A stretch of DNA of 10,461 nt, taken from the IMG/VR virus record IMGVR_UViG_2526164651_000009. The stretch is one strand, 5' to 3'. Position numbers and translations under genes: made by a program. Below the pieces are notes generated by a model. That model saw only the letters and a program-made list of their open reading frames with translations, had not been told where the DNA came from and ran no database searches. Positions 5,941 to 10,461 of the stretch are shown here, piece by piece. The DNA comes from a virus (taxonomy: Duplodnaviria > Heunggongvirae > Uroviricota > Caudoviricetes). The first letter of the stretch is position 1. Each line of letters begins with the position of its first letter.

Positions 5941-6035
5941 CCTCCTTTGTGTTTAAGGAGTCACCGCCTGACGTCTCAATGTCATGATTGGCGGTGACGT
6001 CAGCGGGGTTGAGACTACCGGACACAAAGGAAACC
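5941..6035 (-). ncRNA. Candidate C4-type antisense RNA or structured regulatory leader upstream of the Icd-like gene
   Basis: A perfect 10-nt inverted repeat: 6022-6031 (ACACAAAGGA on plus) is the reverse complement of 5943-5952 (TCCTTTGTGT), and the latter covers most of the SD of the Icd-like gene. Between them is a 9-bp stem (5960-5968 GTCACCGCC with 5990-5998 GGCGGTGAC). A local 6-bp hairpin (5942-5947 with 5955-5960) also includes the SD. Exact RNA ends cannot be determined from sequence. Confidence 0.3.
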
Positions 6036-6121
6036 GGCCTATCCGAAGATAGCCCCACTGACGCCACCATAGATACAGTACGGGCAAGGCCGCTGATTTG
6101 ATGTGCGTGGTGATCGGACAC

Positions 6122-6144
6122 AAAAAAAGACGCTTTCGGCGTCT
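6122..6144 (-). terminator. Candidate rho-independent terminator for the upstream alpA-side operon
   Basis: On the minus strand: stem AGACGC, loop CGAAA, stem GCGUCU, followed by six U (plus-strand A-run at 6122-6127). The stem is short (6 bp) but GC-rich. Confidence 0.35.
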
Positions 6145-6282
6145 GTGTCGCCCTTAGTGTGTTCGGGGTCTCAATCCCGGTTGCTGATTTTGCAGCAACG
6201 CTTGGACTATAACAGCTTTTCTCTGCTAGGTGGTCATACCAGATAAAACCGTAACCCTTTAAGAGTTTTCCCTGTGCACGGC

Positions 6283-7884: not shown

Positions 7885-8093
7885 CAAGCCACCTTTCCCC
7901 GACGTTCTGCCAGCCAGTTGTTAATCTCTACCGCATCAAAGGCGGTAATCTTCTCGCCCAGCTTTACCGGGCGCGGCAGTCGCTTATCTCGAACCCAACG
8001 ATCAATGGTTGCTACATGGACGCCCAGCGCTTGAGCCAGGCGGAAGCGGCGAATATAGCCGCTTGTGGGAAGTGGTGATTGGTGTTCTGTCAT
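7884..8093 (-). CDS. alpA: AlpA-family phage transcriptional regulator (helix-turn-helix), 69 aa
   Basis: Preferred start is the ATG at 8093-8091 with AAGGAG about 9 nt upstream; the track start at 8117 has no SD. Motifs RLAQALGVHVATIDRWV...PRPVKLG...EINNWL match the AlpA pattern. It is the first gene after the int-cargo block, as is typical for P4-like and PICI elements. Confidence 0.8.
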   Translation of the reverse strand: MTEHQSPLPTSGYIRRFRLAQALGVHVATIDRWVRDKRLPRPVKLGEKITAFDAVEINNWLAERRGKVA

Positions 8094-8194
8094 ATGTCCC
8101 GTAACTCCTTTCTGCATCGTTACGGGAATACTGAATAAAAAACCAGTGTTTATCTATACAGAATCAAAATATTAAAAATCCGAATAGATTCAGA
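8094..8194 (-). promoter_or_regulatory. AT-rich leader and probable promoter region of the alpA operon, with a hairpin around the alpA SD
   Basis: A 9-bp inverted repeat, 8097-8105 (TCCCGTAAC) with 8119-8127 (GTTACGGGA), has a 13-nt loop containing the SD AAGGAG. Further upstream are AT-rich repeats of AATCTGAA/TTCAGATT (8189-8196 and 8221-8228). No confident -35/-10 hexamers could be assigned by eye. Confidence 0.4.
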
Positions 8195-9046
8195 TTATTG
8201 AAAATCTATCAATTTCAGAAAATCTGAAAACCTCATGTTTTTTATGTGGGGGTTATCTGCGTAGTATTTTTTTAATTCCACTCGACTAAGCACATCTCTC
8301 ACAGACTCTGCAAATGGTTTCACAGTGTCACGGATGTGAGCGCCACCCTTAACCGTTCCGTCAGGTAGTGGCTCAGGGAACAGTAGACGCGCATAAAGCT
8401 CATTGGACACCATAATGCCGTTAATCCTCGCCCATCTTGATATATCAAGATATGGGATTATCCGGTAATGATGGATCTTGGCAATTGTTGACGCCCCGAA
8501 CCTCTTTTTTTCTTTGACGGCACTTTCAGGTATACCGGTCTGAACCCTCCACCTTTTTAGCAATGTTTTAAATCCAGCTATCATTTCGTCATCGTCCATC
8601 AAATCAAGCCCGATATCGACAAATATCCCCGTTTTACCTTCTGACCTTGGATCATCGGTATCATATAGCATCGACTGGTTGTATATATCGCAATTTTCTA
8701 TGTCTGCTCTTGCTTCAATTCTGCCATTATCCGTTATCGTCATACGCCCATCACTCAGGCAGCTGTTAACAAAAGCGCAAATCATCGAAAAAGGTAGAGG
8801 CATAATTCCTCTGTCATCAAAGGATAGACTACCCTCCGGCAAATCCTCATCCCAGAGGGTAACATCCGTTATAAGGGGGAATGGAATAATTGAGAAAACC
8901 TCATCTTTTCGTAACTCAAGACTATCAGAGTGATAACTCATCATGAACATCTCGCTTACCACATGGTTGACACTTAGATCCAACACGTAGTCGTACCTGT
9001 CCAGTGAAAACCATTCCATCACATCGCCGTATTTAGCCCGTTTCAT
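8195..9046 (-). CDS. Hypothetical protein, 283 aa; AT-richer cargo gene between integrase and alpA, function unknown (candidate accessory or defence gene)
   Basis: ATG at 9046-9044 with AAGGTGG about 7 nt upstream; TAA at 8197-8195. The gene looks AT-richer than its neighbours (not computed). No Walker, HExxH or nuclease motif was recognised by eye. Confidence 0.75.
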   Translation of the reverse strand: MKRAKYGDVMEWFSLDRYDYVLDLSVNHVVSEMFMMSYHSDSLELRKDEVFSIIPFPLITDVTLWDEDLPEGSLSFDDRGIMPLPFSMICAFVNSCLSDGRMTITDNGRIEARADIENCDIYNQSMLYDTDDPRSEGKTGIFVDIGLDLMDDDEMIAGFKTLLKRWRVQTGIPESAVKEKKRFGASTIAKIHHYRIIPYLDISRWARINGIMVSNELYARLLFPEPLPDGTVKGGAHIRDTVKPFAESVRDVLSRVELKKYYADNPHIKNMRFSDFLKLIDFQ

Positions 9047-9141
9047 AACGCCACCTTTTACGCTGCGCCTTATTTTGTGATTGAGCCAGGCGGTAAGGCT
9101 TCCCGCTTTTCGCCCCGTCGGGCTAGACTCAATCTATTCAG

Positions 9142-10401
9142 TTAGTTCGCCCTTCTGAGAGGCGTCACGTTGTAATCTTCGCCCTTCTCCAGAGCCACCA
9201 GCAAGCCCGCCCACTGTGTTAACGCAGCCCGTCGCTCGTCAAAGTATTGGTGACGGTTATAAATCCCCTCTACGCCCTTAATGCGATGATTGAGGCATCG
9301 TTCCGCCACTACCGGATCAACGCCCAGCGCTGCTAAATGGGTGCGGGCCGTGCGTCGGAAGTCGTGAATCGTGAAATTAGGCACATCCGGTATTTCGGCG
9401 CGAACCTTAGCCAGTGCTACGGGCAGGGTGCTTTCCTGAATATGGGGGATCATGCGGTTTTGCATCTTTCTGGCTGGCAGTACCCATGCGCTGTTGCATG
9501 AGAACGTTTTAAGCTCTCTCAGCCATTCGACGGCTGGGGAAGGTAGAGGTATATCAATAGGGTCTCCGTTTTTGCTGCGTTCTTCCGGCAAATGCCATAC
9601 CGCACCATCTAAATCAAACTCTTCCCATCGTGCGGCGCATAATTCCATTTTGCGGACGCATAACGCTAACAGTAATTTGAACGTGATTTCGTTCTGGCGA
9701 CTGAATCCCTTAGCCGTGCGCATGGCTTTGAATAGCTGGATTAACTCATCGCGGGTTAACCAGCGGTCACGGGCAACTTCTTTCCCTCCGGCGTCTGCCA
9801 CCTCAAAGGCTGAACAGGGGTTAATCTCTAGCGCGTGCCGTTTGATTCCGTAGTCGAATATGCGGCGCGTCCATCTCAGCACGTCCGTTGCTATGGTCGA
9901 CGCTCCACGGTCAACAATACCTTTCAGCATGTCATCGATATGGCGCGGTTTCACGTCCTCTACCTTCATGCTGCCAATGCAGGGGTTTATATCTTTGTCG
10001 ATACGGCGGCGGAGTATATCGGGGTGCTTCCAGCGCGGGAGGATCTGACGCTCAAAGTATTCAGCGGCAAGCTCTGAAACGCGCATAGCGTTCTTCTCTG
10101 CTTCCATCTTCGCCAGTGCTTCGGTTTTGCGCTTCTGCTTCTCTCCTGCAACGTCATAGCCCAGCGCAACGCGAGCCGATAGCTCTTTGGCTGTCTCTCT
10201 GGCCTTTGATAGTGATAGCTCGCTATACGAACCAATTAGCATGGCGCGGGACTTCCCTGCGAGTTTATAGCGGAATCTCCATGTGGGGGTTTTGTCGGCT
10301 TCACGGTAACGTAGGTATAAACCGTTACCGTCTGCCCGCCCCTCGAATCGCTCTCCGCTCTTAATCCATGCGCGGATCTGCATGTCTGTTAGTTTTGGCA
10401 T
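9142..10401 (-). CDS. int: P4-type tyrosine integrase (site-specific recombinase), about 419 aa
   Basis: Preferred start is the ATG at 10401-10399 (MPKLTDMQIRA..., matching the usual P4-type integrase N-terminus); the ORF remains open to the window edge at 10461. The C-terminal catalytic region carries HDFRRT and the active-site tyrosine context GIYNRHQY. Confidence 0.9.
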   Translation of the reverse strand: MPKLTDMQIRAWIKSGERFEGRADGNGLYLRYREADKTPTWRFRYKLAGKSRAMLIGSYSELSLSKARETAKELSARVALGYDVAGEKQKRKTEALAKMEAEKNAMRVSELAAEYFERQILPRWKHPDILRRRIDKDINPCIGSMKVEDVKPRHIDDMLKGIVDRGASTIATDVLRWTRRIFDYGIKRHALEINPCSAFEVADAGGKEVARDRWLTRDELIQLFKAMRTAKGFSRQNEITFKLLLALCVRKMELCAARWEEFDLDGAVWHLPEERSKNGDPIDIPLPSPAVEWLRELKTFSCNSAWVLPARKMQNRMIPHIQESTLPVALAKVRAEIPDVPNFTIHDFRRTARTHLAALGVDPVVAERCLNHRIKGVEGIYNRHQYFDERRAALTQWAGLLVALEKGEDYNVTPLRRAN

Positions 10402-10461
10402 TTTGCGAATATCCAAACTTTGAATAGGGGGTGTACCCAAAGCAATGTACCCAAACCTCAT

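Follow-up and report, generated by a model that had tools for sequence, protein, structure and literature searches.

Fold-back inhibition in the insertion sequences IS10 (of Tn10) and IS50 (of Tn5) reportedly shields the transposase gene from external promoters, as is said to have been found by Davis, Simons and Kleckner in 1985, Krebs and Reznikoff in 1986 and Schulz and Reznikoff in 1991. In both elements the distal arm of the fold covers the ribosome-binding region and RNA made from the promoter of the element itself begins inside the proximal arm or beyond it, which leaves only transcripts from outside able to fold. Here we describe a hairpin in front of the regulatory gene alpA in a 10,461-nt stretch of viral DNA (IMG/VR record IMGVR_UViG_2526164651_000009; hereafter the window), which has the gene layout of a Gram-negative phage-inducible chromosomal island (PICI), and we suggest tentatively that this hairpin may protect the ribosome-binding site (RBS) of alpA in a similar manner. 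AlpA acts in Gram-negative PICIs as the self-activating master regulator (PMC6092414; PMC10111431), and its overexpression causes runaway replication of the island that is harmful to the cell (PMC6092414). Helper phages induce alpA by a route that is not known (PMC6092414; PMC11773190). The hairpin may bear on how alpA is kept silent.

An earlier note, made from the sequence alone, had seen a 9-bp inverted repeat just upstream of alpA (8097-8105 / 8119-8127), and a repeat search recovered it with arms that are 100% complementary and 13 nt apart (Table 1). The coding strand reads UCCCGUAAC-GAUGCAGAAAGGA-GUUACGGGA-CAU-AUG. The Shine-Dalgarno (SD) sequence does lie inside this stem-loop, as the same note held; it occupies the loop's 3′ edge, only the final G being paired (in the closing pair), and the spacer of 11 nt between SD and AUG is unusually long. 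The conserved start of alpA is the ATG at 8093, where the N-termini of homologues align and with which the PGAP annotation of E. coli ET979 agrees. The in-frame ATG within the loop (8117) gives rise to a 77-aa alpA in the list of open reading frames (ORFs); it has no SD, is absent from other lineages and would follow the predicted mRNA 5′ end by 3-4 nt. The folding energy of the hairpin is -13.5 kcal/mol in the window, and for the segment from hairpin to AUG the medians over 75 distinct homologues are -12.5 kcal/mol and z -3.5. Folding of the 81-nt leader, a check that had been proposed for this locus, gave -20.6 kcal/mol (z -3.5 versus shuffles). No intrinsic terminator was found at the hairpin, where the stem is followed by CAUAUGACAG with no U-tract and no terminator was called on the minus strand. 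Rfam returned no family at 8090-8135 even at E values up to 10, its sole int-alpA match being the one at 9067-9133. We did not find a structure in the alpA leader described in the literature, and met the term 'int-alpA' only in an unrelated paper.

A lone perfect 9-bp inverted repeat is near the chance level for 10 kb (the window holds seven overlapping matches at four sites, against 1.2 expected from Markov simulations), and the real evidence for the hairpin is its conservation and covariation. Relatives of alpA were gathered from 15 genomes, 67 viral contigs and 80 metagenome contigs, yielding about 99 distinct upstream regions, and in nearly all of these a hairpin ends 1-4 nt before the AUG. 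The arms vary and retain their complementarity (CCCGUAAC/GUUACGGG, CCCAUAAC/GUUAUGGG, CCUGUAAC/GUUACAGG, CUCGUAAC/GUUACGAG, CCCCUAAC/GUUAGGGG, CCCCGUUAC/GUAACGGGG and CCCUAUUAC/GUAAUGGGG). Covariation was tested on a MAFFT alignment of 32 sequences that was not fitted to the structure, with 500 shuffles and slid-partner controls. In this alignment 93% of cells were paired, compared with 26-43% in the slid controls, and double-sided changes occurred in five of the nine pairs (22 cells), which none of the 500 shuffles reached. RNAalifold independently predicted the same helix. A covariance model built from the alignment produced one sense-strand match per locus, ending at the first alpA codons, in 87 of 100 sources; the misses were mostly distant alpA relatives, the remaining matches, all weaker, were antisense copies of those sites, and the window gave no further match. 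The middle pair is GC in 45, AU in 13 and CG in 13 of 76 distinct rows. Loop length ranges over 13-23 nt (13, 16, 17, 19, 22, 23) without helical phasing, and the 3′ arm stays at a fixed distance from the AUG, not from the 5′ arm. Among the 75 distinct sequences about 70% of the SD-AUG spacer is paired, and the SD core is paired at 1-4 of its 4 nt in every case and at all four in 26, where a CUUC anti-SD lengthens the stem. We conclude that the hairpin is real, under selection and conserved across enterobacteria and many genera. As judged from the sequences gathered, the element is restricted to this clade of alpA.

The flank of the hairpin resembles a promoter. We analysed 51 clusters of upstream flanks, less than 70% identical to one another and anchored on the first paired base. 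The six bases before that base have the consensus T-A-T-A-A-T, with no preference further upstream. A -10 position weight matrix (PWM) averaged 0.09 at the offset abutting the stem versus about -2.8 elsewhere and peaked only there; at least four of six -10 matches were present in 29 of the 51 clusters at the abutting offset and in no more than 14 at any other. A -35-like peak at a 17-bp spacer was seen in 10/51 clusters, for example ATGACA-17-CATGAT, and the corresponding elements in the window are TAGATA-17-CAGTAT. The dinucleotide UA at positions 6-7 of the arm is invariant in 76/76 distinct rows. From these signals we infer a start site inside the 5′ arm, and the transcript of alpA itself probably begins within the hairpin. 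That the TATAAT-like flank is mere extra stem pairing with the start codon was considered and rejected: the outward flank shows no covariation with the start-codon side, and at every step the paired fractions equal those of shuffles.

Some loci depart from the common form. Within 40-60 nt upstream of alpA, L006, L040, L146 and their relatives (about seven loci) have lost the 5′ arm together with the -10-like hexamer, owing to a recombination breakpoint within the loop (…TTCCATCACCAGC…), and have kept the 3′ arm and the SD, a natural 'stem-disrupted' variant. In L062, which carries a more distant alpA, the hairpin is replaced in the 100 nt upstream of alpA by a larger G+C-rich multi-stem leader (GUGAGCCUG…GGAACGCCG…CGGCGUUCC…CAGGCUCAC). 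In L089 and L030 the stem extends to about 15 bp (GCAUGCUUCUUGUAAC / GUUACGAGAAGCAUG), and the start codon is paired with sequence that doubles as the -10-like hexamer.

Upstream of the hairpin the DNA is AT-rich (27% G+C over 8128-8260) and contains several palindromes. The imperfect palindrome at 8152-8189 is a candidate operator or activator site. The strongest upstream inverted repeat differs in sequence by lineage, and analogous repeats lie near -50 in 16-18 lineages; palindrome centres fall between -51 and -47.5 in 16/36 when positions are anchored on the hairpin versus 9/36 when anchored on the ATG. The earlier note had singled out TTCAGATT (8189-8196) and AATCTGAA (8221-8228) as repeats that straddle the stop codon of the upstream gene and might be operator sites or a weak terminator. 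The repeats are present and do straddle the stop (8195-8197); the operator or terminator role is unsupported. Simulation yields a comparable 8-bp inverted repeat in 19% of sequences, and two of the motif copies are mutated without compensation in L087, the closest relative that shares the upstream gene. As for a terminator, no U-tract follows and none was called on the minus strand. AATCTGAA and TTCAGATT are probably incidental parts of a region that holds the conserved dyads at 8152-8189 and 8184-8209.

The most likely mechanism, which we advance tentatively and at somewhat short of an even chance, is fold-back protection of the alpA RBS of the IS10/IS50 type, selective for read-through RNA; such selective occlusion is not reported for phage satellites. 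Read-through RNA from int and from the DUF6387 gene upstream would fold because it includes both arms, and alpA would be poorly translated from it. RNA from the alpA promoter would lack the 5′ arm and be unable to form the hairpin, because its start would lie inside that arm, leaving an open, A/C-rich leader of 27 nt. The promoter itself would be weak and factor-dependent, with the 5′ arm serving as its discriminator and start-site region. In this way the hairpin would insulate the self-activating AlpA from chance read-through, and the island would fire only via its own promoter. Since AlpA activates itself and accidental expression leads to uncontrolled replication (PMC6092414), such insulation would be advantageous. 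A hairpin whose 5′ arm lies in the promoter would also explain how the island tolerates constant transcription of int and the neighbouring gene without inducing itself, and the comparison pins down the location of the predicted alpA promoter and its candidate operator for the family.

Several observations are consistent with fold-back protection. The distal arm lies over the SD, spacer and start region, the helix is under selection, and the genes upstream are co-directional: a search of the 400 nt upstream turned up an ORF in 46 of 51 clusters, co-directional in 46/46. A terminator-like site precedes the hairpin in only 5/51 lineages, and no terminator was called in the window between the DUF6387 gene and alpA. 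In folding predictions the probability that the SD-AUG region is unpaired is 0.31 for read-through RNA versus 0.46 for RNA from the alpA promoter, the latter being higher in 77/84 sequences. The idea that translation of alpA is structurally gated, put forward in the earlier note, is plausible in that a selected stem-loop is placed to hinder 30S binding, and needs amending in that the gate likely acts on read-through RNA and not on the mRNA of alpA itself. That note had named a transcript start downstream of the hairpin as a finding that would refute gating; if transcription begins within the 5′ arm, however, fold-back is what this would indicate.

Other observations weigh against fold-back protection. 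The -10-like hexamer of the window matches at only 3/6 positions, and a generic promoter scan makes no call there. When 140 offsets were ranked by PWM, the proposed promoter came first in 6/51 sequences and within the top ten in 20/51; the promoter is weak, and similar-looking sites abound in DNA this rich in AT. Clusters of flanks are not fully independent of one another, and their last 7 nt may be inherited with the hairpin; where the stem reaches the AUG, in L089 and L030, part of the 'TATAAT' signal reflects complementarity. The start site of alpA is a sequence prediction in every member of the family, the predicted gain in accessibility (0.31 to 0.46) is modest, and the excess of G.U over A.C cells is small (20 versus 13). 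The two experimentally studied relatives checked, alpA of EcCICFT073 and vis of P4, are without the hairpin, and existing experiments therefore do not bear on it.

Much of the same evidence can be read differently. In the main rival explanation the hairpin belongs to the alpA mRNA proper, because transcription starts further upstream or alpA is expressed only from int or upstream-gene RNA, and acts as a constitutive throttle or as a switch that is opened in trans, whether by a protein of the helper phage or host, by a helicase, by CsrA-type binding to the GGA of the loop or by a small RNA. In its favour, the structural evidence fits this equally well, the proposed promoter is weak and seldom top-ranked, and the route by which helper phages induce alpA is not known (PMC6092414; PMC11773190). 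It leaves unexplained the TATAAT consensus set against the 5′ arm and the phased palindromes. The stem of the window, which is perfect, G+C-rich, 8-9 bp long and stable at -13.5 kcal/mol with no anti-SD, is unlike an RNA thermometer of the ROSE or fourU type. Complementarity of the leader to the island's C4, isrK and int-alpA RNAs is no greater than that of shuffles, and antisense control by any of these RNAs was rejected with duplex energies within the shuffled range (z 0.1 to 1.0). We consider a throttle or switch within the mRNA somewhat less likely than fold-back protection, and an operator, a stability element or chance less likely again.

The arms could instead form a palindromic DNA operator over the start site, bound by a repressor, by AlpA or by the product of the upstream gene. 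Co-evolution of an operator with the protein that binds it would likewise be expected to produce symmetric changes in the half-sites, a roadblock operator typically occupies a position like this one (-6 to about +35), and the arm variant correlates with the AlpA allele, although that correlation is confounded by linkage because the two adjoin. An operator would be expected to keep a fixed half-site spacing, whereas the arms lie 13, 16, 17, 19, 22 or 23 bp apart with no phasing; the 3′ arm holds its distance from the AUG but not from the 5′ arm, G.T is tolerated in 20 cells, and AlpA is reported to activate, not repress, its own promoter (PMC6092414). An RNA helix fits better than a dimeric operator because the arms compensate while the loop varies unphased, and we regard the operator as improbable. 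We give still less credence to an element of mRNA stability or processing with no direct role in translation, whether as a 5′-terminal stem-loop that protects the RNA or as a structure flanking an AU-rich site for RNase E. An AU-rich segment does lie directly 5′ of the stable stem, and a start a few bases upstream would bring the hairpin close to the 5′ end, but every flank position prefers its TATAAT base, beyond general AU-richness, and such an element would need neither a 3′ arm fixed against the AUG nor an included SD. The stem would also not be 5′-terminal, because the -10-like peak abuts it and does not lie 7 nt upstream. A functionless chance repeat has next to nothing in its favour beyond the near-expected one 9-bp repeat per 10 kb, and is refuted by the comparative data, in which the hairpin is kept in 87 loci across many genera with compensatory changes. 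Antitermination of the Pseudomonas aeruginosa AlpA type, with an AlpA-binding element (ABE) and a sigma-dependent pause, was dropped as an analogy because the protein here is a helix-turn-helix (HTH) of 69 aa only; in the P. aeruginosa protein an N-terminal segment forms a ring and functional residues lie past position 128 (PMC9371919).

Table 1 Features of the window around alpA and in the rest of the island. Positions are those of the window; distances with a minus sign are relative to the predicted transcription start.
Feature	Position	Strand	Basis or remark
5′ arm UCCCGUAAC	8119-8127	-	Repeat search; also predicted discriminator and start-site region of the alpA promoter
13-nt loop GAUGCAGAAAGGA	8106-8118	-	Includes the SD (3′ end) and an in-frame AUG, 8117, that is not conserved
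3′ arm GUUACGGGA	8097-8105	-	Most of the 11-nt SD-AUG spacer
SD of alpA, AAAGGAG	8105-8111	-	Read from sequence
alpA coding sequence, 69 aa	7884-8093	-	ATG 8093, stop included; Pfam Phage_AlpA, E 2.3e-08
-10-like hexamer CAGTAT, predicted	8128-8133	-	3/6 match including A2 and T6; abuts the 5′ arm
-35-like hexamer TAGATA, predicted	8151-8156	-	17-bp spacer; overlaps the promoter-proximal half of the palindrome
Transcription start, predicted (A8121 or A8120)	8120-8121	-	7-8 nt after the -10-like hexamer, inside the 5′ arm
Imperfect palindrome ATCTAT-N26-ATAGAT	8152-8189		Centre 8170.5 (-49.5); overlaps the -35-like hexamer; kept in L087
Dyad ATAGATT-N12-AATCTAT	8184-8209		Centre 8196.5 (about -75.5); spans the stop codon of the upstream gene
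8-bp inverted repeat TTCAGATT / AATCTGAA	8189-8228		Plus mini-palindrome TTTCAGA/TCTGAAA at 8213-8229
Upstream co-directional gene, DUF6387, 283 aa	8195-9046	-	Pfam; likely source of read-through into alpA
int-alpA RNA motif RF02996	9067-9133	-	Rfam, 59.5 bits against a gathering score of 35.8
Integrase	9142-10461	-	Pfam; cut by the window edge
C4 antisense RNA	5987-6074	-	Rfam
isrK	6123-6199	-	Rfam
c4-a1b1	6160-6212	-	Rfam

All genes of the window are read on the minus strand. The genes int, alpA and that for a DUF927/Toprim primase share one orientation, with no phage structural module (Pfam, with which the ET979 annotation agrees), and judged from its genes alone the layout is that of a Gram-negative PICI. 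E. coli ET979 carries a 98.9% identical island with the same annotation, adjoining yicC; the locus is at 84.8-86.1 kb of NZ_CP100876. After alpA follow a 144-aa ORF, an AntA-domain protein, a zone with the C4, isrK and a1b1 matches and an Icd-like gene, and the primase. The family was found in 354/5426 complete E. coli genomes, and a tblastn search with AlpA against 50,697 phage records gave no match. Downstream of the primase gene, 1049-1098 holds overlapping perfect 9-bp inverted repeats (1049-1061 with 1071-1098), possibly serving as a terminator or as a structure related to an origin.

Thirty-eight of the 51 lineages carry, ahead of alpA, a gene of the same unannotated family (208-368 aa), with which the DUF6387 protein of the window has only an N-terminal motif in common. 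The final 60 or so residues of the family's proteins end in an AlpA-like, HTH_17-like motif, 'S..T[LI]..W[LI][KR]..G'. This C-terminus co-varies one-to-one with the type of palindrome, and AlpA alleles are shuffled relative to both, which suggests from sequence comparison that the C-terminal domain and the palindrome are a functional pair; physical linkage could also explain it. The observation concerns the region 90-130 nt upstream of alpA in loci L001-L164. The product of the upstream gene may be a regulator of alpA, with linkage as a confounder. The earlier note had divided cargo from backbone at this gene, probably wrongly: the family is positionally conserved and its C-terminus co-varies with conserved dyads, so that 'cargo' is probably the wrong label. 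Searches on the upstream protein gave only DUF6387 in Pfam, nothing in PADLOC and a family of unknown function in PHROGs. AlphaFold2, run on a 15-sequence alignment, gave a mean predicted local distance difference test score (pLDDT) of 65 with confident helical parts at the N- and C-termini, and Foldseek against the PDB found nothing below E = 2. It is conceivable, though doubtful, that the gene, for all that it is usually regarded as cargo, encodes a modular sensor-regulator with a role like that of Stl in the Staphylococcus aureus pathogenicity islands (SaPIs), whose HTH-like C-terminal domain would bind the palindrome over the -35, while the hairpin would let the gene be transcribed constantly into alpA without making AlpA. 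If so, this would locate where helper-phage induction of Gram-negative PICIs acts.

A second masked RBS lies further along the island. The claim that the architecture at alpA recurs at the Icd-like gene holds to the extent that an anti-SD hairpin is present (CUCCUU 5960-5955 / AAGGAG 5947-5942); the motif is a different one, which the alpA covariance model does not match. RBS masking is used twice in the island, because the SD of the Icd-like gene is paired with the upstream CUCCUU. The C4, isrK and c4-a1b1 matches lie inside a 250-aa ORF that matches Pfam Phage_ASH, and the Icd-like gene (ATG 5932) follows. A 9-bp stem, GUCACCGCC/GGCGGUGAC (5998-5990 / 5968-5960), is found just upstream of the hairpin at its SD. 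The segment 5930-6212 on the minus strand is a P1-like immunity module within a satellite. The island thus carries the parts known from RBS occlusion in c4/icd-ant of P1 and P7 and from IsrK, namely C4, isrK and a1b1 matches and an Icd-like gene with a masked SD. The alpA hairpin differs from c4/icd-ant in sequence, structure and partners, and has no special complementarity to C4 or isrK.

The int-alpA RNA (RF02996) occupies the same int-alpA intergenic zone in the same kind of island, and was found in the window and in 8/15 genome loci. Unlike the alpA hairpin, it is a separate three-stem element, placed directly after int and ahead of the intervening gene, some 1 kb upstream of alpA. Its placement is the same in L002, L003, L005, L007, L009, L011, L012 and L013, at about 1320-1490, and the match ends in UAAGG just 5′ of the start of the intervening gene. 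Despite its name, the int-alpA RNA is that gene's leader, not alpA's.

The island resembles EcCICFT073 (PMC6092414) and EcCIMP1 (PMC11773190) in the order int, alpA, primase, with AlpA in those islands an autoregulated master activator that is induced by helpers, and it shares with EcCIMP1 an uncharacterised gene between int and alpA. The papers on these two islands (PMC6092414; PMC11773190) deal with transcriptional control only and do not mention a leader structure. The alpA of EcCICFT073 is unlike the one described here in belonging to a different allele family, with a GTG start and no such hairpin.

The closest parallel is with IS10 and IS50. The locus differs from these in lying in a PICI-like phage satellite, in that the gene concerned encodes an activator or excisionase-type regulator and not a transposase, and in that an antisense RNA partner was not found here. 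It is like them in having a distal arm over the RBS, a start that is here predicted to lie within the proximal arm, and, as we propose, the silencing of a dangerous mobile-element gene under read-through. The principle is well known from IS10 and IS50; the novelty would be that a phage satellite makes use of it.

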